A DNA stretch of 32,955 nt, taken from Patescibacteria group bacterium (GTDB lineage Bacteria > Patescibacteriota > Patescibacteriia > Patescibacteriales > VMTK01). The notes beneath the pieces are model-generated. The model saw only the letters and a list, made by a program, of their open reading frames with translations. It did no database searches and was not told the origin of the DNA. The position numbers and the translations under genes are program-made. The stretch covers positions 1 through 32,955 of the forward strand of contig JAYEOU010000141.1 of NCBI GenBank assembly GCA_034723335.1, in the 5' to 3' direction. Numbering within the stretch: the first letter of the stretch is position 1; each line of letters opens with the position of its first letter. Below are positions 389 through 23,457 of the stretch, piece by piece.

Positions 389-3300
389 ATGTCTCAAACA
401 AATTCAATCAAAATAAAAGGCGCCCGGGTCCACAACTTAAAAAATATTAATGTGGAAATCCCGCGCAACAAATTTATAGTAATCACTGGATTGTCCGGCT
501 CCGGCAAATCTTCGCTGGCTTTTGATACTATTTACGCCGAGGGCCAGCGCCGCTATGCGGAATCTTTGTCTTCTTACGCGCGCCAGTTTATCAACTTAAT
601 GGATAAGCCTGATGTTGATCTAATAGAGGGACTGTCTCCCGCCATTTCCATAGACCAAAAATCCGCTTCTAATAATCCGCGCTCTACAGTGGGTACAATA
701 ACCGAAATTTATGATTATCTGCGCTTGCTTTTTGCCCGCATTGGAACGCCGCACTGCCCTAAATGCGGACAAAAAATTAAACAATACACGGTTGATGAAA
801 TTGTTAATCAAATTGTAAAATCCTTTGCCGGACAAGACATTCTTATACTTGCGCCTATTATTAAAGGCAAAAAAGGCGAACATAAAAATATTTTACAATC
901 AATTGCTAAGGCCGGATATTCCTATATCAGATTTGACAACAATATCTATGCATTGGAAGAAATTGAGGATATGCAAGTGGACAAACAAAAAAAACATAAT
1001 GTTGACATAGTGATTAATAGGCTAACCGTTGCAAAAAACAATAAAGGCGAAAATCGCCCGCCTTGCCAGCGGACAGGCGATCATCGCCTTTATTTAACCA
1101 AAGATATAAAAAAAGCATTGGATTTAGCTAACGGATTAGTAACAATTTCTCCCGAAAGCAATCGCAGGAATCATAATAGCGGGAACAAGGCAATACCTCG
1201 TTCCTATGATTGCCTTCGGGAAATAACCTATTCCAAGTCATTTGCCTGCCATAAATGCGGCATTCATCTGCCAGGGCTGGAACCGCGCAATTTTTCATTT
1301 AATTCCCCTTATGGCGCTTGCCCGGCTTGTTCTGGATTGGGCGCTAAACTAGAAATTGATTCCGGTTTAATAATCAACCCTAATTTAACTATTGCCCAAG
1401 GAGCAATAAAGCCATGGGCGCGAAATACAGCCGCTGATCAAGCGCTAACGCGGACGCTGGACGCAATAGCGCGAAAGCATGGCTTTAACATAAATACGCC
1501 TGTAAAAAATCTATCCGAAAAACAGCTTAATATTGTTTTATACGGCAGCAGCGATGGCGGCGCTAAATTTGAAGGTGTGATTCCTAATCTGAAACATCGC
1601 TATCAGCATACTGAATCAGATTGGACACGCCGAGAAATTGAGCAATACATGCACTCGCTTGTCTGTCCAGTCTGCCAAGGCAAGCGGCTTAAGCCGGAAA
1701 TGCTGGCGGTTAAAATTCCTAATCCTTTAAAAGACGGCTCCACCCCTCGCGAGGAGCGAGGCAAGGAGCAAAGTCGTCTTCTAAAGAATCTGTCAATTCA
1801 TGATGTCTGCGATAAAACCATTAACCAGTCCAAAAAATTCTTTGCTCAATTGGAAAACTCAAAAAAATTATCAGCCCGCGATAAAAAAATTTCAGCGCAA
1901 ATCATAAAAGAAATCCGCGCGCGACTGAATTTCCTCTCTAATGTCGGGCTTGACTATTTAACTCTTAACCGCGCGGCTAGCACCTTGTCCGGCGGCGAAG
2001 CCCAGCGCATACGGCTGTCCGCGCAAATCGGCTCTGCCTTGGCCGGTGTCATCTATATTTTAGACGAACCGTCAATCGGCTTGCATCAAATGGATAATAA
2101 TAAATTGATTAACACTCTGAAAAAACTTCGCGATTTTGGCAATACCGTAATCGTGGTTGAGCATGACCAAGCCGCTATGCTGTCAGCTGACTGGATTATT
2201 GACGCCGGGCCTGGAGCGGGAGAGCATGGCGGCAGAATTGTTGCGCAAGGCGCGCCGGAAAAAATCAAAAAATCAGCCAAGTCTTTAACCGGCCAATATT
2301 TATCCGGCAAAAAATTTATACCTGTTCCGGCAAAGCGCCGCCAAGGCAATGGCTGCCGGATTAAAATAATCAACGCCAGCGAGCATAACTTAAAAAATAT
2401 TAATGTTGAATTTCCTTTAGGAAAATTCATTGCCATAACCGGCGTTTCAGGATCAGGCAAATCCACTTTAATAACAAATACTTTAGCCCGCGCCCTGGCG
2501 CAAAAATTCTACCGGGCCAAAGCCCGGCCAGGCCGGCATAAAAGCATTAAGGGCATACAATATATTGATAAAGTAATTAACATAGACCAATCCCCGATCG
2601 GCCGCACCCCAAGATCCAATCCTGCCACTTACACCAACGTTTTTACTCCTATCCGCGAATTGTTTGCCGGCTTGCCTGAAGCCAAAATCAGGGGCTATAA
2701 AGCCGGCCACTTTTCTTTCAATGTGGCTGGCGGCCGCTGCGAAGCCTGCGGCGGCGGCGGCTTAGTTAAAATTGAAATGCAATTTCTGTCTGATATTTAT
2801 GTTAAATGCGAAGCATGCCATGGCCAACGTTATAATAAGGAAACATTAAAAATTTATTATAAAGCCGGCAACAGCGGAGCAGGCCTGCCTGACGGCGGAG
2901 CGGGCCGCTCCCGAGAATCTCTCGGGGGGACAGGCAAAAATATTTCTGATGTCCTTAATATGACAGTGGGAGAAGCTATGAATTTTTTTAATCCGACGCC
3001 TTTGAACCCATACAACGGATATGAAATAAAAAATATTCCCACAATTCACCAAAAATTGTCAACGCTTTACGAAGTTGGCTTGGGATATGTTAAATTAGGC
3101 CAGTCCGCTACCACGCTCTCCGGCGGCGAAGCCCAGCGGATTAAGCTCGCTGCTGAGTTGTCAAAAAGAGCAACCGGCAAAACACTATATATCTTAGACG
3201 AGCCGACTACAGGGCTCCATTTTGACGACATTAAACGGCTGCTTATTGTTTTAAACAAGCTTGTTGAAAAAGGCAATACGGTTTTAATCATTGAGCATAA

Positions 3301-3454
3301 CTTAGATGTTATAAAATCAGTTGACTGGATTATTGACCTTGGCCCCAAAGGCGGCAATAAAGGCGGCGAGATAGTAGCGGCAGGTACGCCGCAAGATATA
3401 GCTAGAGTAAAAAACAGTTATACAGGACAGTATTTGGCAAAAGTATTGAAATAA
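389..3454 (+). CDS. uvrA: Excinuclease ABC subunit A (UvrA), about 75 aa longer than canonical because of four GC-rich in-frame blocks
   Basis: N-terminus [12 protein letters not shown]...[25 protein letters not shown]. Two Walker A motifs ([16 protein letters not shown]), two LSGGEAQR signatures, and zinc-finger Cys pairs (CPKCG, CHKCG, CPVCQG, CEACGG...CEACHG). Confidence 0.97.
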
Positions 3455-3474: not shown

Positions 3475-3526
3475 AAAACAACAAATGAAGGCGAGGTTTG
3501 CAAACCTCGCCTTCATTTGTTGTTTT
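3475..3526 (+). terminator. Perfect 26+26 nt palindrome after uvrA, likely a rho-independent terminator
   Basis: aaaacaacaaatgaaggcgaggtttg / caaacctcgccttcatttgttgtttt, ending in a T-run. The core atgaaggcgagg.ttgcaa.cctcgccttcat recurs at 31361-31408. Confidence 0.8.
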
Positions 3527-3858
3527 CGGTTGTTTTAAAAAATTCGCGCGGCAAATTAGCAACAAAAAAAAACGGCATTCACTAAATTGCATATTGTATA
3601 ATTTAGTAAATGCCGTTATATTGTGAAATAAGACACAATGCGAGAGGCTACATTCGCTCGCGCATTTTTTGTCGTATCCTACTTATATAAATACTACCAA
3701 TAATTCATACGTAAATCAACCCTAATAAATTACGCTAATATTAAATAAAAAAAATAAAATAATTTCAAATAATGCAATGATTATTAATAATTGTGGATAA
3801 CTTGCTATACTTTTGATAAAATTTTCTGCCTATCCCTATCGCAATAAAATAGGCCTAT

Positions 3859-4048
3859 TAGACTTGTCGCGTAATTATTTTTTACTGCTCCGCCAGCTGG
3901 CCCGCCAGTGGGCGGGCTGGCGGATTGGTCAAATTTTCCAAAAATTTTTTTAGCTTAGCTTAGGCTAAACCTCAAAAATTGTTTGAAAAATTATAACTCA
4001 TCCCGCAAAACTGCGGGACGTTACAAAACTAATTACGCGACAAGTCTA
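3859..4048 (+). mobile_element. MITE family 1, copy 1 (19-bp terminal inverted repeats tagacttgtcgcgtaatta)
   Basis: Termini are tagacttgtcgcgtaatta ... taattacgcgacaagtcta. Conserved core is ggtcaaattttccaaaaattttttt-agcttagcttaggctaaacctcaaaaattgtttgaaaaattataactca. No ORF. Carries an extra nested palindrome, cccgccagtgggcgggctgg. Confidence 0.85.
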
Positions 4049-4090
4049 TTGTATATTCTAAACGGTCCGCTGTCTTGCGGTTGGGCTGTT

Positions 4091-5656
4091 TTATTTTTTC
4101 CTAAACACCTGGGCTGTAAAAATTTTTAACTCCACATCCTTACCCTTATAACAATCAGGCGGCAGGCCGGCTTTCTGCGAACAAAGCTGTAACAAAAATT
4201 CTTCCTTGCTCCAGCCGGTTTCATTCGCGACTTGCGGCAAGAATACGCCGGAACGCAATCCTTTTTGCAATATTACGCCATGCTTGCCTAATTCAATATC
4301 CTGCCAATTATTTATTTTTTTTGGAACAGATAAAACACTTACTTCATAATCCAGCTTATCCAGCTCTTTTTTGCTGACCGGAACAAAACGATGGTCCTGA
4401 GTCGCCGCGGCAATCGCCATATCCCGCGCCACCTGCCATAATGGCTTATCACTTGGCGCAATCTGCCCGATACAACCGCGCAATTTGCCATTACTGCGCA
4501 AAGTAACAAACGCTCCCTGTTTCCACTTCAACCTTTCATCGCTAACATCAAACTCCGGCGCCTTGCCATCCTTAACATAACTTTCCACCGTGGCGCGGGC
4601 AATGTGTAAAAGCTTATTTTTCTGCTGCTCATTTAATATATCTATTATAGTTCCCCTCTTCTCTTCCACCCCGCCCCTCGCGAGGAGCGGGGTGAAAGAG
4701 CGGCAGGGGGTGAGGGCAAAAACAACTGCTCCATAACCCACCACGCTGCTTTTGTCGCCAATAGGCGCATCACCGCTATTTGCATATCTTAAAATTTCAA
4801 TCCTATCCCAATCCAATAAATTATACAATTCCAAAACCGTTTTAACTCCATCAATCCCGCACAGTACGGTTTGCTCATTAGGAATATTTTGGTTTTGGAC
4901 ATCTTTAAGATAATTTTCCAATTTAACAATATCGGCTAATTTTATTATTTCCAATGTTTGCTTATCAATCTTATTAGCATCTTCATAGCTTGGATAATGC
5001 GACATGTCAGTTGAAATTACCACAATATCATTCTCGCCTAAATTATCAGCTAATGCTTGGGCCAGTAAGGAACTAGGTTCTGGGTACCCAGAACTTAGTT
5101 CCTGTTTATTGCCAAACAATATTGGCACAATCTTAAAATCTTCAGCCAGCACAGTTTGCAAAAACGGCAGCTGCGCTTCAAGAGTGTGATCAGCCGCATG
5201 GACATTACTGTCAAATTTAATAACATCATCCCGCTTAACTAATTTGCCGGCCAGCTCTTTATCAACTTCCGCTAATCCTAATGGCGTTTGCCAAGCGTCG
5301 CTTTCGTCAATGGCAATGCCGTCAAAATAAGCGGTATGGGAATTGCAAATTATCACTGCTGTCCTAACTTTTTTGCCTTGCAATTGTTTATAGCTGTAAG
5401 CCGCAACAGGCGCGCTAAAAACATAACCTGCATGCGGGACCATAACAGCTTTAATATTGCTTTTAACTTTTGATTCCTCAACAGCTAATAAATATTTTTC
5501 AATTTCTGATTTTAACTCTTTTTTATCAGCCGGATAAAATTGCCCTGCCACTGCCGGCTGGCGAATATTTTGAAATTTTGGCTCCATAGATTTATCTGCT
5601 CGCTTTGCGCAGGCGGTTAATATTAAAAATAAAATTATTAAAATTAATTTTTTCAT
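4091..5656 (-). CDS. Fusion protein: MEMO1-family (AmmeMemoRadiSam protein B-like) N-terminal domain plus AMMECR1 (protein A-like) C-terminal domain, with a lipoprotein-type signal peptide
   Basis: N-terminus MKKLILIILFLILTAC has an LTAC lipobox. AGQFYPADKKEL and MVPHAGYVFS are MEMO-like. The C-terminal GAFVTLRSNGKLRGCIGQI...ATQDHRF is the AMMECR1 signature. Confidence 0.85.
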   Translation of the reverse strand: MKKLILIILFLILTACAKRADKSMEPKFQNIRQPAVAGQFYPADKKELKSEIEKYLLAVEESKVKSNIKAVMVPHAGYVFSAPVAAYSYKQLQGKKVRTAVIICNSHTAYFDGIAIDESDAWQTPLGLAEVDKELAGKLVKRDDVIKFDSNVHAADHTLEAQLPFLQTVLAEDFKIVPILFGNKQELSSGYPEPSSLLAQALADNLGENDIVVISTDMSHYPSYEDANKIDKQTLEIIKLADIVKLENYLKDVQNQNIPNEQTVLCGIDGVKTVLELYNLLDWDRIEILRYANSGDAPIGDKSSVVGYGAVVFALTPCRSFTPLLARGGVEEKRGTIIDILNEQQKNKLLHIARATVESYVKDGKAPEFDVSDERLKWKQGAFVTLRSNGKLRGCIGQIAPSDKPLWQVARDMAIAAATQDHRFVPVSKKELDKLDYEVSVLSVPKKINNWQDIELGKHGVILQKGLRSGVFLPQVANETGWSKEEFLLQLCSQKAGLPPDCYKGKDVELKIFTAQVFRKK

Positions 5657-8153: not shown

Positions 8154-8723
8154 CTACCGCCTAATTTTAATCTCATAATTAATCTGTTCAATTTTTTTCA
8201 AGCTATTCCTTGCCTGGTCATATTTAGTGCGCAAATAACCTGTCATATCAAATTCCACTAATTCAGCCAAAATATCGCTAATGGCGCTTTTAATTTTTTT
8301 CACTTCATCCTGCTTGCCGGCCGCCGCCATATTAATCGCCCGCCTGGCTAATTCACCGGTTAAATCGCAAATCCCCCCCAAATAACTGTCCATATCTAAT
8401 TTAATCTTTTTAACCCTGTCAACTTTTTTTCCTGTCATTACCCGATAAAACATTTTCGCTTCAACATATTCTTCGGCCCCGGCTTTATACGCGCCTTCTT
8501 TATTTAAGCGATTATGTCCAAATTTTTTCTCCAGCGACTGCAGGGCTTTTTCCGCTTCATTAAGCAATATGCCTGCTTGTTTAATGTCATCCCTATGCAA
8601 AGCGAAAATTACCCGCTTAGAGCCGTGTAAAATTACATTAGACAAACTAATAATCTGCCTGCGTTCTGATACATTCTTCTCATAATCTTTCTTTAATTTT
8701 TGGATAAATTTTTTGTTAATCAT
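8154..8723 (-). CDS. Translin-family protein
   Basis: 189-aa helical protein with YLGGICDLTGELARRAIN, matching the translin/TRAX signature (G..DLTGEL.R) from memory. Confidence 0.65.
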   Translation of the reverse strand: MINKKFIQKLKKDYEKNVSERRQIISLSNVILHGSKRVIFALHRDDIKQAGILLNEAEKALQSLEKKFGHNRLNKEGAYKAGAEEYVEAKMFYRVMTGKKVDRVKKIKLDMDSYLGGICDLTGELARRAINMAAAGKQDEVKKIKSAISDILAELVEFDMTGYLRTKYDQARNSLKKIEQINYEIKIRR

Positions 8724-8726
8724 ATT

Positions 8727-9034
8727 TTTAGAATTACGAATTACGAATTAAGAATTACGAGTTTGTATTTAGGGGCTGGTGATCTTTGCCGTTTTTGCCC
8801 TAAATTCCCAAAATTCGGCAAATTTATAAAAATAATTTTTTCGCCTATATTAGCTCATATAAGCTTAAAAATTATTTTTAAAATTTGCTCAAATTTTGAA
8901 AATTTATGATCAAAAGAGCAAAAATCACCAGCCCCTATTTACAAATCAAGAGTTTAAAGATCTTAATTCTTAATTCGTAATTCGTAATTCGTAATTCGTA
9001 ATTCGTAATTCGTAATTCGTAATTCGTAATTCTA
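8727..9034. repeat. Intergenic inverted-repeat element whose arms are heptamer arrays (acgaatt / aattcgt)
   Basis: Left arm is agaattacgaattacgaattaagaattacg...aggggctggtgat (to 8783). Right arm is atcaccagcccct (8924-8936) followed by aattcgt x8 (8972-9027) plus aattcta. Confidence 0.8.
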
Positions 9035-11407: not shown

Positions 11408-11431
11408 CCCCGCCCCTCGCGAGGAGCGGGG
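11408..11431. repeat. GC-rich palindrome ccccgcccctcgcgaggagcgggg, intergenic copy
   Basis: Near-identical copies lie at 4667-4694 (inside a CDS) and 14807-14830 (inside a MITE). Variants lie at 12784-12807 and about 1741-1762 (inside uvrA). Confidence 0.8.
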
Positions 11432-12717: not shown

Positions 12718-12827
12718 ATAGTTTCCTCCTTAAAATCGCGAATAAAACGCGAATGGTCAAGAATTAAGAATTAAGTCCGTCAGCCCCGCTACTCGCGAGC
12801 GGCGGGGCCAGCTGGCGGATTTTATAA

Positions 12828-12876
12828 GTTCCATGTTCCACGTTATGCGTTATGCGTTATGCGTTATGCGTTATAC
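12828..12876. repeat. Heptamer tandem array: gttccat x2, then gttatgc x4 plus a variant
   Basis: Read directly. 12857-12876 overlaps the ftsH 3' end, so residues ...CITHNA and the TAA stop are array-encoded. Confidence 0.9.
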
Positions 12877-14695
12877 AACCCTTCTCCCCCACTATTTTCT
12901 CAAATTCCTCTCTCTCTATAGTCTCCTTCTTGAGCAACACTTCAACTATTTTTTCTAAATCTTTGCGTTTTGCTTTAATAATGCCCTTGGCTTGATGAGC
13001 CGCTTTATTTATAAAATCAGAAATTTCCTTATCAATTTGTTCAGCAATTCTTTCACTATAATCCCTTTGTTCATGAATTTCCCGGCCTAAAAAAATCATT
13101 TCATCTTTACTGCCAAAAGTTCGCGGACCCAAAGTTTCGCTCATGCCAAAATCAGTAATTAATCTGCGGGCTAGACTTGTGGCTTGGCGCAAATCAGAAG
13201 TGGCTCCGGTTGTAATCTCGCCAAAAACTTCCTGTTCTGCTACATACCCCGCTAACAAAACCGCAATTTCTTCAATAAATTCATCCTTAGTATGCATATG
13301 CTTATCTTTAGTCGGCATTTTTAAAGTATAGCCGCCGGCCTGGCCGCGCGCGATAATAGAAATTTTCTGCACAGGATCAGTGCACGGCAAATTATGGGCG
13401 ACCAAGGCATGCCCTGCTTCGTGATAAGCGGTAATCTTTTTTTCTTTTTCAGTTAAAACCCTGCTTTTGCGCTCAGGCCCTAACATTACTCTTTCAATTG
13501 ACTCTAACAATTTATCCATTTCAATTATTTTTTTATTGCGCCGGGCGGTTAACAGAGCTGCTTCATTAAGCAGGTTAGCCAAATCAGCTCCGCTAAAACC
13601 AGGAGTGCGCTCGGCAACGCGGCGCAAACTAACTTCTTTGGCTAACGGCTTTTTGCGCGCGTGGACTTTAAGAATCGCTTCCCGATCGGCAATATCCGGC
13701 GCGTCTAAAGTAACGCGGCGATCAAAACGGCCGGGCCTGAGCAATGCCGTATCTAAAACATCCGGACGATTCGTAGCCGCCATCACAATCACATTGGTAT
13801 TTGGCTCAAAGCCGTCCATCTCCACTAAAATCTGATTTAAAGTCTGTTCCCGCTCATCATGCGAACCGCCCAAGCCGGCGCCGCGCTTGCGCCCCACGGC
13901 GTCTAATTCGTCAATAAATATAATGCAAGGCGTATTTTTTTTAGCTTTTTTAAATAAATCACGGACCCTGCTCGCTCCAACCCCGACAAACATCTCTACA
14001 AATTCCGAGCCGGAAATGCTAAAAAAAGGCACATTGGCTTCACCTGCCGTGGCGCGGGCTAAAAGCGTTTTGCCGCAACCAGGGCCGCCTAAAAGCAAAA
14101 CGCCCTTGGGAATACGCGCTCCTAATTCAATAAATTTTTTAGGATGCTGTAAAAATTCAACCACTTCTTTCAACTCTTCCTTGGCTTCTTTATCTCCTGC
14201 CACATCGCGAAAAGTAACTTTATCCTTGCGATCCTTGCTGATTTCACGGGCTTGGGACTGGCCGAACATCATTGCCCTGGTGTTAGCTCCCTGAACCCCG
14301 CGCATCATTAAATAAATAAAAACGCCGATTATTAAAAAAGGCAGTAAAAACGGCAAAAGAGCGGTAAGCCAATAATCCATGCCTGATTCTTCTTTAACCT
14401 CAATTTTAATAGCGGCGATTTTAGCCGAATCAACGCCAAAATTATTTAATAATTCAGACAAAGATTCGCCTACTTCTTTCTTAATTGTTTCTTCTCTGCT
14501 GTCTTTTAAAGCCACTTTTAATTCATCTCCTTCTATAATAATGCTATACACTTCCTCATTGTTAATTTGATTAATCAATGTTTCAATGCCAACTCTGTCG
14601 CTTTCTTGTTTACCCGCGCCAAAAGCGCTGAATAAAGCGGCAATCATTAAAAAAACAATAAAAAATATTAAGAAATTTTTAACCAAATTTTTCAT
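12857..14695 (-). CDS. ftsH: ATP-dependent zinc metalloprotease FtsH
   Basis: Two N-terminal TM segments, AAA+ Walker A GPGCGKT, Walker [12 protein letters not shown] region, and the zinc motif HEAGHA. Confidence 0.97.
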
Positions 14696-14711
14696 ATTTT
14701 TCAGAAAACAG

Positions 14712-15008
14712 ATATTTATAGATATTAGTGGATATTAGCTCCTCTCCCGCTAAAGCGGGATCGGAGCGATATTTAATAGACTTGTCGCGTAATTAGTTTT
14801 GTAACGTCCCGCCCCTCACGAGGAGCGGGATGAGTTATAATTTTTCAAACAATTTTTGAGGTTTAGCCTAAGCTAAGCTGAAAAAATTTTTGGAAAATTT
14901 GACCAAAATTTGAAAATTGCAATAAAAAATAATTACGCGACAAGTCTAATATCAATAAATATCGCGCGAAGCGCAAATATCAACAAGTATCAATAAATAT
15001 CTATTATC
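14712..15008. repeat. 10-nt-phased AT-unit array upstream of ftsH, interrupted by a MITE
   Basis: Units atatttatag, atattagtgg, atattagctcc..(hairpin tcccgctaaagcggga)..gagcg, atatttaa | MITE | atcaataaat, atcgcgcgaagcgcaaat, atcaacaagt, atcaataaat, atctattatc. Confidence 0.6.
14777..14948 (-). mobile_element. MITE family 1, copy 2 (opposite orientation to copy 1)
   Basis: Same TIRs and core. Its internal modules differ: it carries the tcccgcccctcacgaggagcggga palindrome, and aaaatttgaaaatt in place of tccgccagctggcgga. Confidence 0.85.
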
Positions 15009-15057
15009 AAAATTATATAACATTATAATTATTTTGGCAAATTATATAAAACAAAAA

Positions 15058-20221: not shown

Positions 20222-21502
20222 ATGACAAAAGCAGACACAATAAAGAAACGATTTTCAAAAATCAAGATTGACCCGTCTTGGGCTTTTGCTGATAAAACGC
20301 GGAAAGAAACATCATATCTTACACACGGCTACCATCGCTATCCGGCAAAATTTATTCCTCAAATTGTTTCTCGGTTATCTGAGAAATATACCAAAGAGGG
20401 TGATTTAATTGTTGATCCTTTTGGAGGATGCGGCACGACTTTAGCTGAAGCAAAGGTTATAGGCAGGCGTTCTGTCGGAGTAGATATAAATCCTGTTGCT
20501 ACTTTAATAACAAAGGCAAAAAAAACACCGATTAAACCAGCCGAATTAGAGGAGCAATTTCTAAAGATAAAAGAAAAAATTGATTTCTTTAATAAAAGTA
20601 CGAGAGTTAAAACGCCTGAACATGAAAGAATTGATTATTGGTTTAAGCAGGAAGAAAAAAGAAAACTTGCTTTTCTTTTTTCTGAAATTTCAAAGATAAA
20701 AAATAAAGATGCGCGAGATTTTTTTTATTGCGGTTTTTCTAATATTCTTAAAAATTGTTCAATTTGGCTTCAAAAAAGCAATAAACCGACAAGGGATTTT
20801 AGCAAAGAGCCGGCAGATCCATTTGCAGTTTTTGCGCGCCAGATTAGAGCAATGCTACGGGGCAATTTTGATTTTTATAATATTTTAAAAGAGCGAGGAT
20901 TTTTAAAAACTTCATGTAAAATTTATTGCGCTGACGCTAGAAAAATACCAACAAAAAATAATTCCGTAAGTTTAATTGTTACATCTCCGCCTTATGTTAC
21001 TTCTTATGAGTATGCTGATTTGCACCAGCTTTCTGCCTTATGGTTTAAATACGCAGATAATTTAAGCGATTTTAGAAAAAGGTTTATCGGCACTTCGCAT
21101 AACGGAGTAAAAGAGATAATATTAAATAGCGAGATTGCGGAAAATATAAAAAAAGATTTAGAGCAAAAAAATAAAAAATTAGCAAAAGAGGTTGCTATTT
21201 ATTTTAGCGAGATTAACCAGTGCTTTAAGGAAATGAAAAGAATGTTAAAAAAGAATGGCAGGGCTTGTATTGTGATTGGAAATACAAGTTTAAAGGGAGT
21301 GGAAATTTTAAACGCGGAAGTTTTTACTGAGCAGATGCAGAATTTAGGATTTAAGATTGATGATATTATTAAAAGAGAAATTCCGTCAAAAAATTTGCCG
21401 TCAACAAGAGACAAAAAAACAGGCAGATTTGCAAAATTAACTAATAAAAATAATATACAAGTTTATCCAACAGAGTATATTTTAATAATGAAAAAAATAT
21501 GA
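20222..21502 (+). CDS. DNA methyltransferase (N4-cytosine/N6-adenine family, motif order I...TRD...IV)
   Basis: YPAKFIPQIV (motif X-like), DLIVDPFGGCGTT (motif I), then IVTSPPYVTSYEY (motif IV, SPPY) about 190 aa downstream. Confidence 0.88.
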   Translation: MTKADTIKKRFSKIKIDPSWAFADKTRKETSYLTHGYHRYPAKFIPQIVSRLSEKYTKEGDLIVDPFGGCGTTLAEAKVIGRRSVGVDINPVATLITKAKKTPIKPAELEEQFLKIKEKIDFFNKSTRVKTPEHERIDYWFKQEEKRKLAFLFSEISKIKNKDARDFFYCGFSNILKNCSIWLQKSNKPTRDFSKEPADPFAVFARQIRAMLRGNFDFYNILKERGFLKTSCKIYCADARKIPTKNNSVSLIVTSPPYVTSYEYADLHQLSALWFKYADNLSDFRKRFIGTSHNGVKEIILNSEIAENIKKDLEQKNKKLAKEVAIYFSEINQCFKEMKRMLKKNGRACIVIGNTSLKGVEILNAEVFTEQMQNLGFKIDDIIKREIPSKNLPSTRDKKTGRFAKLTNKNNIQVYPTEYILIMKKI

Positions 21503-22248
21503 CCACCAAAAGAAAAATAATAAAAAAAGCGAAAAATTTTTTTACTATCAAGAATTTATTATTGATTTATGATAAGTATAAAGAAAAATATGGCGATGAT
21601 GCTTACAAATATTTAAGCAAAGTTTTTGAGGAAGCAAAACCGTTGCATAAAAAAAGTTTTTTGAAAAGTAAAACAGCTCAAGAAAAAATTCAAAAAGGAG
21701 GAACGCCTGACCACGAACAATCATGGAGAGCATTTAAAGGAAAAAATTTAGAAAAAATTATTATTTATATTTTAAAAGATGTGATCAATGGATTAGATTT
21801 AGAGGTTTTAGACGGCAATAAATTAGAAAAAACAAATGGCGCGAATTTATCAAAAGAATTAAGTTTAGTTAAAAGAAATCTTTTAGTTGATTATGGCGAG
21901 TTTGGCTCTCATCTTCCTGATGTTGATATTATTATTTATGATCCAAAAACAAGTAATGTCGTAGCTGTGCTTTCAAGCAAGGTAACTTTGCGAGAAAGAA
22001 TAGCGCAAACAGGATATTGGAAAATTAAACTTGCTTCTGACGAAGCGACAAAACATATTAAGGTTTATTTTGTAACGCCTGACGAAGATGGAACGCTGAC
22101 GATAAAAAGTCCAGCCAAAAAAGGTCGGGCAATTGTAGAAATAGACACAGACGGAAGTTATGTTTTAAGCAAGACGGATATTGAGGAAAGCGACAAAGTA
22201 AAAATGTTTGATAAATTTATTGAAGATTTAAAAAAGCTACTAATATGA
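21499..22248 (+). CDS. Putative PD-(D/E)xK restriction endonuclease
   Basis: PDVDIIIYD ... AVLSSKVTLRERIAQ is consistent with a PD...(S/E)xK core. The start overlaps the M1 stop (ATGA). It lies between two methyltransferases. Confidence 0.55.
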   Translation: MTTKRKIIKKAKNFFTIKNLLLIYDKYKEKYGDDAYKYLSKVFEEAKPLHKKSFLKSKTAQEKIQKGGTPDHEQSWRAFKGKNLEKIIIYILKDVINGLDLEVLDGNKLEKTNGANLSKELSLVKRNLLVDYGEFGSHLPDVDIIIYDPKTSNVVAVLSSKVTLRERIAQTGYWKIKLASDEATKHIKVYFVTPDEDGTLTIKSPAKKGRAIVEIDTDGSYVLSKTDIEESDKVKMFDKFIEDLKKLLI

Positions 22249-22448
22249 AAAATATTAAAACTACAATTTTTTCTAACGGTGTCATTTTACAAGCCGTTGA
22301 GTGTATAATAAATGGCAAGAAACAGTGGAGGTGGATTGTTAATAGTTTTGAATATGATAGTTTTTTGAATGGAAAATTAATCAATCCAGTGGAATATGGT
22401 ACAAAACAAGATAATTTAACCGAAAAATTTGAAAATGGATATAACTAA
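22245..22448 (+). CDS. 67-aa hypothetical protein, translationally coupled
   Basis: ATGA overlap with the upstream stop. No motif recognised. Confidence 0.45.
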   Translation: MKNIKTTIFSNGVILQAVECIINGKKQWRWIVNSFEYDSFLNGKLINPVEYGTKQDNLTEKFENGYN

Positions 22449-23112
22449 TATGCAAATAGAATCAACAACTCTTTGGGATTTTCCGAGGCAGAATTATGGC
22501 GATAAGTTGCACGGGAATAATAAATATAATGGCGTTACTCCTGCGTCTGTAATTTGGAATTTACTGCAACGATATACAAAAGAGGGCGATTTAGTAGTTG
22601 ACCCGATGTGTGGAAGCGGAACGACCATTGATGTCGCCAATGAATTAAACAGAAAAGTAATCGGTTATGATCTTAATATTGTAAGACCAGATGTTATAAA
22701 AAATGATTCTCGGAAAATTCCGCTTCAAGACAATAGCGTTGATTTTGTTTTTATTGATTCGCCTTATTCTGACAATATAAAATATTCTGGCAAGGAAAAA
22801 TGTATTGGTAAGATTTCTTGCGAGGACGAAAATTTTTATGACGAATTAGAAAAAACTGCCAGTGAGATTTACAGAATACTAAAACCAAACAAAGCAATGG
22901 GTTGGGTTATCGCCGACCAATGGATAAAAAGAAAATTTACACCAACAGGATTTCTCATCTGGCAAAGATTGGAAAAATATTTTGAACCAATGGATATAAT
23001 TTGCCTAACTCGTCATAACCAAACCTCAAACACTGGAGTTTGGCATAACAGAGCAAGGCAGTTTAATTTCTATTTGAGAGGCTTTAAATATTTATTTATA
23101 ATGAAAAAATAA
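22435..23112 (+). CDS. Small divergent DNA methyltransferase (motif I followed closely by an atypical motif IV, DSPY)
   Basis: LWDFPRQ, DLVVDPMCGSGTT and FVFIDSPYSD. The ORF-track start at 22429 is TTG, and ATGs lie at 22435 and 22450, so the start is uncertain. Confidence 0.8.
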   Translation: MDITNMQIESTTLWDFPRQNYGDKLHGNNKYNGVTPASVIWNLLQRYTKEGDLVVDPMCGSGTTIDVANELNRKVIGYDLNIVRPDVIKNDSRKIPLQDNSVDFVFIDSPYSDNIKYSGKEKCIGKISCEDENFYDELEKTASEIYRILKPNKAMGWVIADQWIKRKFTPTGFLIWQRLEKYFEPMDIICLTRHNQTSNTGVWHNRARQFNFYLRGFKYLFIMKK

Positions 23113-23133
23113 ATTTTTCTGTTTAGCGGTAAT

Positions 23134-23457
23134 ATGAAAATTAAAATTAAAAATGACAGGTATTATAAAAAAAGAAATGGGGCGGCCAAGATAATTAATA
23201 TTCAGTGCGCTAAATGCGGAAATTTCCTTTTTTCATATCAAAAAGACGGGCATGGAGAATTGATGCGGTGTTATCTAAACAGAATAATTAAGCCGGAAAA
23301 ATATTCGCGGATAAAAAATGAAGCGAACAATATAAAAGATATGGATAATTTAAAATGTGTTTGCGGAGAAATAATCGGAGTTCCGATGCAACATAAAGAT
23401 AAACGCTTGGCATTTCGGATGAAAAAAGGAAAATTTAAACGAAAATATAAAAAATAA
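23134..23457 (+). CDS. Basic zinc-ribbon-like protein, last gene of the operon
   Basis: CAKCG ... CVCG gives four Cys in CxxC...CxC spacing. Lys/Arg-rich N- and C-termini (KKGKFKRKYKK). Confidence 0.6.
   Translation: MKIKIKNDRYYKKRNGAAKIINIQCAKCGNFLFSYQKDGHGELMRCYLNRIIKPEKYSRIKNEANNIKDMDNLKCVCGEIIGVPMQHKDKRLAFRMKKGKFKRKYKK

Follow-up and report, generated by a model that had tools for sequence, protein, structure and literature searches.

GC-rich palindromic insertions in the uvrA gene of a Patescibacteria genome and their probable origin as dispersed hairpin repeats

The window analysed here is an entire contig of 32,955 nucleotides (nt; 37% G+C) from a metagenome-assembled genome (MAG) of the Patescibacteria group, as NCBI labels the genome's UvrA. 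Its uvrA gene encodes a protein of 1021 amino acids (aa) and carries several short in-frame insertions, four of which stand out as GC-rich blocks (hereafter blocks 1–4). Across close lineages, these insertions are hairpins of dispersed families that preserve the reading frame, recur at a few sites, nest within one another, and have been gained, lost, or have decayed. We think it probable that the blocks are copies of GC-rich, hairpin-forming dispersed repeats—similar to repetitive extragenic palindromes (REPs), Rickettsia palindromic elements (RPEs), and yeast mitochondrial GC clusters—that became fixed in permissive loops of the protein, where they nest and decay. As judged from sequence, blocks 3 and 2 have strong evidence of belonging to a dispersed family; for block 1, which shares the basal stem only, it is moderate, and for block 4 weak.

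In-frame insertions in uvrA

The uvrA gene was taken from the list of open reading frames (ORFs); its product matches solved UvrA structures at E = 0, and its homologues are named UvrA. It was compared with relatives by (i) HMMER alignment to the solved UvrA of Geobacillus and Thermotoga, (ii) alignment with 25 Patescibacteria UvrA proteins, (iii) codon alignment to the DNA of the two nearest orthologues, L001 and L002 (86% and 78% nt identity to the window gene), and (iv) measurement of site lengths between conserved anchors in the 120 closest UvrA homologues. A further locus, L118, carries a uvrA that is 94% identical to that of L002 (source assemblies GCA_030641205.1 and GCA_030641105.1, respectively). 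Metagenome uvrA relatives with at most 59% identity among the matches listed (L122–L201) were left out of the analysis. The features of the gene are as follows.

389–3454, + strand: uvrA, 1021 aa
1040–1094, + strand: block 1, a hairpin whose basal stem is ATAAAGGCGA...TCGCCTTTAT
1150–1221, + strand: block 2 (site 2), a hairpin with stem CCGAAAGCAATCGCAGGAA...TTCCTATGATTGCCTTCGG
1553–1561, + strand: site D, a 15-aa deletion that partly offsets the insertions (alignment and census)
1718–1783, + strand: block 3, a 66-nt insertion (+22 aa) found in the window only (codon alignment and census)
2864–2935, + strand: block 4 (site 4), GC-rich, +23 aa relative to the clade mode, three small adjacent hairpins
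2990–3028, + strand: insert 5, 39 nt (+13 aa)

The initial annotation described this UvrA as overlong, and the census bears this out: 1021 aa against the ~953 aa typical of the 120 homologues, about 68 aa more. The whole excess had been assigned to the four blocks. All four are indeed insertions, but a fifth insertion and a 15-aa deletion also contribute, and the net change between anchors is +12 +13 +22 +23 +13 −15 = +68 aa (+83 and −15). Five insertions and one deletion thus explain the difference between 1021 and ~953 aa. Site 1 measures 21 aa in 88 of 90 homologues and 33 aa in the window; site 3, 10 aa in 81 of 88 and 32 aa in the window; site 5, 9 aa in 88 of 90 and 22 aa in the window, a length common only to homologue P0002. 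Site 4 is 2 aa long in 80 of 112 homologues and 9 aa in 23 of them (25 aa in the window), and site D is 22 aa in 107 of 115 (7 aa in the window). Site 2 is variable throughout, ranging from 27 to 84 aa with a mode of 34 aa; the window has 47 aa.

That conserved UvrA sequence resumes around the blocks was also borne out: all four are gaps relative to both the solved structures and the 25 Patescibacteria proteins. Codon alignments with L001 and L002 give clean gaps of 36, 66, 30, and 39 nt. Every insertion, and every length difference among the orthologues, is divisible by three and free of stop codons; from these frame and stop-codon statistics we infer that the inserts are translated. Inserts 1 and 3 are private to the window relative to L001 and L002, so that individual inserts are indeed missing from relatives.

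Mapped onto UvrA structures, the inserts fall where solved proteins have short turns, with gaps relative to 2R6F at chain positions 442–445, 798/799, and 817/818. Inserts 1 and 2 lie between the region aligned to the isolated UvrB-interaction domain (query residues 133–215 against 3FPN) and the FACHKCG zinc-finger motif. UvrA has two homologous halves, and inserts 3 and 4 are at equivalent turns in them, ~12 residues past the second CxxC of the zinc module; as read from the translation, host sequence resumes with LSIHDV after insert 3 and GKNISDVL after insert 4. In an AlphaFold model, all five inserts (residues 217–230, 258–276, 449–465, 825–848, and 871–881) are coil, with a predicted local distance difference test score (pLDDT) below 50. 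The inserted peptides are rich in Gly, Pro, Ser, Arg, Glu, and Asn. By sequence and model, then, the insert sites appear to fit tolerant surface loops.

The palindromic character reported for the blocks holds in full for blocks 1–3, which are the three top-ranking short-range inverted repeats of the gene (1722–1750/1761–1789 in block 3, 1150–1170/1201–1221 in block 2, and 1040–1058/1076–1094 in block 1), and in a modest form for block 4. Each segment was folded as single-stranded DNA and compared with 200 dinucleotide shuffles. Block 1 gave a z-score of −6.2, block 2 of −4.1, and block 3 of −4.3, in each case with 0 of 200 shuffles as good. These results lie far beyond chance, and the observation is therefore real. 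Block 4 (2861–2940) scored −2.25, with 6 of 200 shuffles as good; insert 5 scored −2.3.

Hairpin families within and beyond uvrA

Block 3 is a nested hairpin, CTTTAAAAGACG[GCTCC[ACCCCTCGCGAGGAGCGAGG]..GGAGC]..CGTCTTCTAAAG, whose core belongs to a family that we call F2, a 24-nt palindrome CCCCGCC.CTCGCGAG.GGCGGGG. A search of the window with the pattern CCGCNNCTCGCGAGNNGCGG, allowing up to two mismatches, returned five matches (starting at 1740, 4671, 11410, 12786, and 14809) against 0.00 expected. Two of these, at 11408–11431 and 14807–14830, had been named in the initial annotation as relatives of the third block and were recovered; that list was incomplete in that it lacked 4671–4690 and 12786–12805. 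Two of the five copies lie in coding sequence, one in uvrA and one in the Memo-AMMECR1 gene.

1740–1759, + strand: core of block 3, an F2 copy with two mismatches
4661–4700, − strand: F2 in the Memo-AMMECR1 interdomain linker, in-frame, nested in an older hairpin
11408–11431, no strand: intergenic F2 copy nested in CTCCA...TGGAG
12786–12805, no strand: intergenic F2 variant CCGCTACTCGCGAGCGGCGG from the pattern search
14807–14830, no strand: F2 within one copy of a ~190-nt repeat resembling a MITE (miniature inverted-repeat transposable element)

The family extends well beyond this genome. The strict F2 pattern, scanned over one genome per species, occurs in at least 115 stretches; 67 of the matches listed are in loci with a GC fraction below 0.5, most of them titled as MAGs of Patescibacteria or candidate phyla (Parcubacteria, Falkowbacteria, Saccharibacteria, Collierbacteria, and others). 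About a dozen of these low-GC loci, among the matches listed, are from MAGs labelled uncultured Gammaproteobacteria. By a rough estimate, far fewer than one such match is expected by chance in AT-rich genomes. Most of the F2 matches listed are intergenic, several with A-runs and T-runs like those of bidirectional terminators. In-frame copies occur in other Patescibacteria in (i) the N-terminal barrel of ATP synthase alpha (AtpA), (ii) the stretch between the two domains of Fe/Mn superoxide dismutase (SOD), (iii) the UvrD/PcrA linker ahead of the tudor domain, and (iv) the Mg-chelatase C-terminal domain of a Mg-chelatase-type protein (ComM). Depending on frame, F2 reads as PASRE(K/R)RG or PPLASSG. 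At L057 3930–3990, the AtpA copy has the 8-nt direct repeat AAATCCGA on either side, which could be a target duplication; the lengths do not fit a simple in-frame event.

Block 2 leads to a second family. Its arms have several mismatches, and the left arm contains a 15-nt bulge, TCATAATAGCGGGAA. The initial annotation presented this block as an insertion; it is palindromic and a gap relative to solved structures, but it is not private to the window, since the 78%-identical L002 carries the same cassette as a perfect 27+27-nt palindrome, CCTGAAGGCAATCGTAGGAACGAGGCA-A-TGCCTCGTTCCTACGATTGCCTTCAGG. Block 2 is a decayed copy of what we term a type-A hairpin cassette. The basal stem (A/G)AAGGC...GCCTT(T/C) is common to blocks 1 and 2 and to terminator-like intergenic hairpins, including that of uvrA itself. 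Three intergenic hairpins with A-run and T-run flanks, at L002 8144, L002 8529, and L118 9326, are homologues of the site-2 cassette: the basal stem is the same, and a 29-nt core is identical at 27 of 29 positions. Of the two in L002, one (AAAAAATGAAGGCTGTAGGAATAAGGCAATGCCTTGTTCCTACAGCCTTCATTTTTT) lies directly after the uvrA stop codon and the other 380 nt further on. The apical module GTAGGAAC.AGGCAATGCCT.GTTCCTAC is 29 nt long, and L002 has three copies of the type-A module in 18 kb.

3475–3526, no strand: terminator-like hairpin of uvrA, AAATGAAGGCGAGGTTTGCAAACCTCGCCTTCATTT, bidirectional, z −12 (repeat and terminator scan)
31359–31412, no strand: second terminator-like copy, 85% identical, between trpS and tig (pattern found twice against 0.05 expected)

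These two window hairpins share the base ATGAAGGC/GCCTTCAT and bear a different apex, GAGGTTTGCAAACCTC, that recurs in L120. Both have the GC-rich hairpin and T-run of an intrinsic terminator on both strands. The coding blocks do not qualify as intrinsic terminators: they lie inside an ORF, and only sub-hairpins of block 1, followed by TTATTT, were caught by the terminator-like scan (on both strands). An Rfam search of the window matched tRNA-Glu alone, and in seven palindrome loci tRNAs alone; the hairpins match no curated RNA family.

Apices can evidently differ on one base. Site 2 of L001 has the same base with the F2 palindrome as its apex (GAAGGCAACCCCGCCTCTCGCGAGAGGCGGGGTCGCCTTC), and this composite, GAAGGC-[F2]-GCCTTC, is found almost identically at another locus, L118 14738. 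Taken together, the sequences indicate no difference in kind between the coding inserts and the terminator-like hairpins found between genes: both are assembled from interchangeable modules.

Site 2 is a hotspot with nested hairpins. The initial annotation had allowed for relatives whose extra loops are not palindromic at the nucleotide level; at this site the opposite was found. All seven long-loop orthologues folded have a hairpin there (z −3.9 to −13.1, 0 of 200 shuffles as good), long and often branched, with RNA minimum free energies of −29 to −103 kcal/mol, whereas both short-loop orthologues folded, L202 (941 aa) and L203 (958 aa), have none. Two unrelated types of cassette occupy the site, and L002 and L118, so similar elsewhere in the gene, differ there at the same codon position (L002 5919–5967). 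Otherwise, only a short patch just upstream differs between them (LTKDI vs LTENV), which suggests a short recombination tract. A presence–absence difference follows the uvrA stop codon, where a hairpin segment of 84–95 nt, bounded by AAAAAAT direct repeats, is found in the window and L002 but not L118. The hairpin load of a locus roughly tracks uvrA length: GC-rich hairpins number 3.0–7.3 per 10 kb in the long-uvrA loci, against 1.1 and 2.3 in the two short-uvrA loci (n = 9).

The net insertion at block 1 is 36 nt (codons 1043–1078, +12 aa) and is unique among the 90 scorable homologues. Its base is a version of the shared stem, ATAAAGGC...GCCTTTAT, that is also found in the L002 intergenic hairpin at 8529–8571; a BLAST search of the blocks against all DNA fetched found no relative of its apex. 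The same search gave no convincing ectopic match for blocks 4 and 5. The palindromy claimed for block 4 is real, but it is of modest strength, and just 30 nt of the block (2885–2914) are new relative to the closest relative. The window is 30 nt longer than L001 at this site, and L001 ~33 nt longer than L002, steps that point to stepwise growth. Insert 5, which the initial annotation missed, is shared only with the closest relative (census 2 of 90); it is GC-rich in L001 (CCCGCGCC..CCCGCGCGGCGG) and AT-rich in the window, where it has decayed.

Outside uvrA, peaks in a fold scan of the window's coding DNA fall almost solely in one other gene, the Memo-AMMECR1 fusion. Its F2-bearing linker records a series of states: no insert in L121, an outer hairpin with an 11-bp stem in L002 and L118, and, in the window, F2 inside a diverged version of that hairpin. 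Other GC-rich inserts that are not in the window, for instance PTSSRLRGAS, are present in the Memo-AMMECR1 of L002 and L118.

4091–5656, − strand: Memo-AMMECR1 fusion gene, with two palindromic in-frame inserts
5068–5103, − strand: 36-nt near-perfect palindrome in Memo-AMMECR1, in-frame, +6 aa relative to orthologues

Nesting is also seen in non-coding DNA. The MITE-like repeat of ~190 nt is present in four copies (3856–4056, 14769–14951, 28465–28661, and 30116–30312) with ends TATTAGACTTGTCGCGTAATTA...TAATTACGCGACAAGTCTAATA, and what sets the copies apart is small palindromes that were inserted or exchanged within them. Two apices occur on one CCCGC/GCGGG stem (F2 at 14807–14830 and a different one at 3999–4020), and one copy has a 20-nt palindrome (3892–3911) inside TCCGCCAGCTGGCGGA where a sister copy has none. 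Two inverted copies bracket tRNA-Glu and tsaD. Over the whole window, the 6.8 kb of intergenic DNA hold 28 hairpins of at least nine pairs, and the 26.2 kb of coding DNA hold 17.

Several further repeats and genes of the window were recorded. The centres of the hairpin families are 6-bp palindromes (TCGCGA, CAGCTG, GGTACC). In tig (− strand), 32440–32469 holds a GC-rich hairpin and the direct repeat TGCGGCTGGCCAACCGGCTGGCCAGCCACA, encodes VAGQPVGQPQ, and may be another small coding insert. The tsaD coding sequence contains two perfect tandem 32-nt AT-rich repeats, ACAAATTCCAAATATCAAATCACAAATTACAA, and a diverged third (29575–29638, 29732–29763); they read as QISNHKLQTNSKYQITNYK and are a different, non-palindromic kind of coding repeat. 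Just upstream of the gyrA start are ~13 tandem copies of the 10-mer TATATCAATG, followed by GCGAGCAAAGCGAG hairpins (26418–26547 and 26552–26620), an array that could be iterons or otherwise origin-like or regulatory; related ATATTTATTGATA and GCTCGC...GCGAGC motifs are found at 216–349 and 14694–15018. Heptanucleotide tandem repeats (CGTAATT, CGTTATG, CGTTACG) lie at gene ends (8962–9034, 12827–12878, and 27305–27356), and the array at 12827–12878 extends into the last codons of ftsH. Finally, judging by its translations, the cluster at 20222–23457 has the look of a restriction-modification locus: a 249-aa ORF stands between two ORFs that resemble DNA methyltransferases, and a further ORF of 107 aa is Cys-rich.

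How the insertions may have arisen

The account that we favour runs as follows. In an AT-rich Patescibacteria lineage, the repeats would reside mostly between genes as terminator-like hairpins. Copies that enter coding DNA would survive only if they are stop-free, a multiple of three in length, and placed in a tolerant loop, because others would be removed by selection. A resident hairpin would then become a preferred landing place for more palindromic DNA, at or near its apex; its arms may sometimes be re-symmetrised, probably via template switching inside the palindrome; homologous recombination between related populations could swap cassettes; and AT-biased mutation would later decay them. 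The inserts would be translated as hydrophilic, Pro/Ser/Gly/Arg/Glu-rich loops, and are presumably passengers rather than functional parts of UvrA.

A number of observations weigh against this account. Not every insertion in the clade is a hairpin: those of L001, L002, and L118 at site D (33–48 nt) fold with z-scores of +0.4 to +1.5, and across 12 inserted segments outside site 2, folding was not significantly different from that of 36 controls (Mann-Whitney p = 0.10). We therefore make no claim that all uvrA insertions of the clade are palindromic. The coding copies in the window and codon alignments are without a consistent flanking target-site duplication, and no transposase or other mobilising gene was recognised among the ORFs of the window. 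The AlphaFold model that places the inserts in coil is poor (mean pLDDT 63.6), with low-confidence stretches outside the inserts too. Copy numbers and the ratio of coding to non-coding copies are rough, because the window covers just 33 kb of sequence from this genome. Convergence on a very stable terminator hairpin, and not common descent, could account for how little F2 varies between distant classes. Lastly, individual blocks retain traces of local DNA. Block 1 shares just an 8-nt basal stem with other copies, and its centre, TTGCCAGC, is ancestral; the closest orthologue has TTGCCAGC here in another frame. In block 3, the left outer arm, TTTAAAAGACGGC, is similar to the ancestral TTAAAAT(A)GACGGC, and the right arm repeats the left in inverted orientation. 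In block 4, the newest 30 nt (2885–2914) look like an inverted copy of adjoining older sequence, and pair with pre-existing sequence downstream (TGCCTG/CAGGCA, CTCCCGAGA/TCTCGGGGG). The arms of blocks 3 and 4 thus suggest local templated synthesis rather than imported DNA.

These traces speak for a purely local origin, in which hairpins form and grow in place by template switching in replication or repair (quasipalindrome formation and correction), a process that duplicates adjoining sequence in the inverse direction, and in which similar GC-rich cores arise repeatedly. Besides the ancestral sequence retained in blocks 1, 3, and 4, such an origin would explain why the 27+27-nt palindrome of L002 is perfect although the cassette is old enough to be common to L002 and the window, and why two arm positions at site 2 differ between these genes on both sides of the stem. 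Likewise, the 20-nt palindrome at 3892–3911, which interrupts only one MITE-like copy, looks like a variant of its host palindrome. What a local origin leaves unexplained are the 16–29-nt identities that link coding inserts to hairpins of unrelated loci and of other genomes, and the occurrence of GAAGGC-[F2]-GCCTTC at two loci. We consider it unlikely as the whole explanation; local template switching probably contributes to the growth and symmetrisation of the hairpins, but not as the sole process.

If the hairpins are instead dispersed repeats, as we favour, a candidate partner for their spread is found in other genomes. In at least eight loci of different classes (L114, L024, L038, L039, L040, L072, L081, and L051), F2 lies 25–50 nt upstream of a ~82-aa ORF with a GIY-YIG domain (PF01541, E 1e-13 to 5e-16). 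The order of the cassette is a 5' tRNA fragment (mostly of tRNA-Trp) ending in the palindrome, then the GIY-YIG ORF, then an intact copy of the same tRNA. A GIY-YIG ORF lies within 320 nt of the palindrome in 8 of the ~115 loci listed, against ~1 expected from ORF density, and two GIY-YIG ORFs that are not near the F2 pattern are preceded at the same place by GC-rich palindromes of other kinds. A split tRNA gene was considered and rejected: the flanking tRNA-like sequence is a partial gene copy, and an ARAGORN intron search of nine palindrome loci called no intron-containing tRNA. From its sequence, the unit resembles a mobile, tRNA-gene-targeting nuclease cassette. Conceivably, the palindromes form a Patescibacteria-wide system of mini-elements with this small GIY-YIG cassette as its autonomous partner, a proposal that we advance as doubtful. 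Under it, a nuclease acting on hairpin or cruciform DNA would break resident hairpins, and repair would copy palindromes into or next to them. If true, this would explain the nesting at apices, the recurrent hotspots, and the spread of hairpins into coding loops, and the hairpins would keep supplying essential proteins of these reduced genomes with new loop sequence. No such cassette is present in the window or the uvrA loci, and the link to the uvrA inserts is for that reason only a hypothesis.

The hairpins might alternatively be selected elements of the uvrA transcript or DNA, serving as internal attenuators or terminators, as sites for RNase, or to pause translation at domain boundaries. 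The strong site-2 hairpins of the long-loop orthologues, kept despite differing sequence, would fit such a role, as would changes on both sides of some pairs, the terminator-like sub-hairpins and TTATTT of block 1, and the position of the inserts at domain boundaries. Yet sites 1, 3, and 5 are empty in 81–88 of ~90 homologues, short-loop orthologues have no hairpin at site 2, the window copies are decaying, and the same hairpins occur in unrelated genes and MITE-like repeats. A selected function is improbable overall, and unlikely for blocks 1 and 3, which are private to this genome; at site 2 it is conceivable.

Least credible of all, and very improbable, are ordinary lineage-specific loop expansions with incidental palindromy, or MAG assembly artefacts: UvrA loops do vary in many lineages (27–84 aa at site 2), some of the relatives' insertions do not form hairpins, and only this MAG contig carries blocks 1 and 3, but the fold scores of blocks 1–3 and the five F2 matches in the window speak against incidental palindromy, and assembly errors would not respect multiples of three free of stops, nor recur in independent assemblies from other samples, where blocks 2, 4 (in part), and 5 are also present. 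Assembly artefact was rejected on this last ground. Inteins and introns were rejected too, the blocks being too short and without splicing features, as were ribosomal bypass elements of the type derived from GC clusters (mentioned in PMC4464245): a ribosome that skips an insert leaves its frame and stops unconstrained, and stop-free lengths in multiples of three are expected if the blocks are translated and not if they are bypassed.

The presence of translated repeat DNA in essential genes is unexpected here because Patescibacteria genomes are small and streamlined. On the favoured account, hairpin repeats can regularly supply protein-length variation in this group, in UvrA, AtpA, SOD, UvrD, and the Mg-chelatase-type protein. 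In these proteins, neither an outlying length nor an odd loop rich in Pro, Ser, Arg, Gly, and Glu should be taken as a functional domain, and such segments should be masked in marker-protein alignments and phylogenies; annotation could spot them by their DNA palindrome. With its swapped apices, its filled and empty sites in genes that are 94% identical, and a possible nuclease partner, the uvrA locus and its relatives offer a compact system in which to consider how palindromes spread without an obvious transposase.

Comparison with known palindromic repeats

The closest published parallels are REPs located inside ORFs. According to Di Nocera et al. 2013 (PMC3733652), both GTAG- and CGTC-tagged REPs occur inside ORFs, and repair genes are strikingly often targeted: the uvrA of Thioalkalivibrio carries two REP dimers, the two uvrA genes of Opitutus terrae each have double inserts, and the uvrB of Rickettsia conorii has a REP. 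REPs are also found there in recB, with independent REPs at about the same recB site in two Xanthomonas species. REPs resemble the blocks in being short (20–40 bp), GC-rich stem-loops of high copy number that lie mostly 3' of genes and are probably transcribed, that are often paired or clustered into larger hairpins, and that in some copies fall wholly within ORFs, adding 20–30 aa, with uvrA a repeated target. The present elements are likewise short GC-rich palindromes (24 nt for F2, 29 nt for the apical module) with significant fold z-scores, and are dispersed and mostly extragenic, with five F2 and two terminator-type copies in 33 kb. As to tags, GTAG...CTAC bounds the apical module in L002 and L118 (GCAG...CTAT in the window), and the inner stem of block 3 is bounded by GACG...CGTC; neither tag occurs in F2 or in the GAAGGC stem. 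No RAYT/TIRYT tyrosine transposase (IS200/IS605-like Y1) was recognised among the ORFs of the window or the called genes of L001, L002, L118–L121, L202, and L203. Unlike REPs, these elements combine the same basal stem with several apices and nest to ~150 nt at one site, neither of which appears in the available portion of PMC3733652; by that portion, the host phylum, too, lies outside its survey.

The initial annotation had likened the blocks to RPEs, the classic example of palindromic repeats that are translated. RPEs (refs 13 and 14 in PMC3733652) are similar to the blocks in being dispersed palindromes, inserted in-frame and translated in genes that still seem functional, thought to occupy tolerant, surface-exposed places, and hosted by an AT-rich, reduced genome. 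The uvrA insertions fit this picture in that they are in-frame (36, 66, 30, and 39 nt, stop-free) and coincide with gaps relative to UvrA structures and with coil of low pLDDT. In other respects they diverge: RPEs are Rickettsia-specific sequence families, whereas the present elements double as terminator-like intergenic hairpins. The typical length of an RPE is roughly 100–150 bp. The blocks, at 53–72 nt (36–72 nt for the elements as a whole), are shorter than this; no RPE sequence was compared. Given in-frame insertion, the tolerant sites, and the membership of three blocks in dispersed families that are also intergenic, the interpretation as RPE-like is supported as an analogy, one of resemblance and not of membership.

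Other systems share single traits. The mobile GC clusters of yeast mitochondrial DNA (PMC4464245) are GC-rich palindromes of 30–80 bp whose host genome is very AT-rich; they are grouped into sequence classes whose subclasses differ by internal insertions and deletions, form tandem or compound arrays, and act as recombination hotspots. Although mostly non-coding, they also occur in rps3/VAR1 and rRNA genes, changing product size, and how they spread is described as unresolved (PMC4464245). They differ from the blocks in belonging to an organelle genome and in having unrelated sequences. MITEs, which have terminal inverted repeats of 15–30 bp on either side of a non-palindromic body and a flanking direct target-site duplication, are a poorer match, since the blocks are hairpins throughout and have no consistent flanking direct repeats. 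The small dispersed repeats (SDR) of Nostoc and other cyanobacteria are reportedly hairpin mini-elements of 21–27 nt, nested in each other and in MITEs, and are said to lie occasionally inside genes; we know of no transposase for them. They differ from the blocks in sequence and host phylum. In mitochondrial genes of Nematomorpha, according to the abstract of PMC6649704, perfect coding inverted repeats reach 284 bp and both arms are translated; these are long repeats in conserved genes of an animal mitochondrion, unlike the short blocks.

No published description of such insertions in Patescibacteria was found in the literature searched. Repeats of this kind inside the uvrA of other phyla are known already, and the present case extends the pattern of palindromes in uvrA and repair genes (PMC3733652) to a new phylum; what is new is their occurrence in Patescibacteria, and their modular, nested, and terminator-shared form. 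In the present case, uvrA is a conspicuous sink for translated hairpin repeats.

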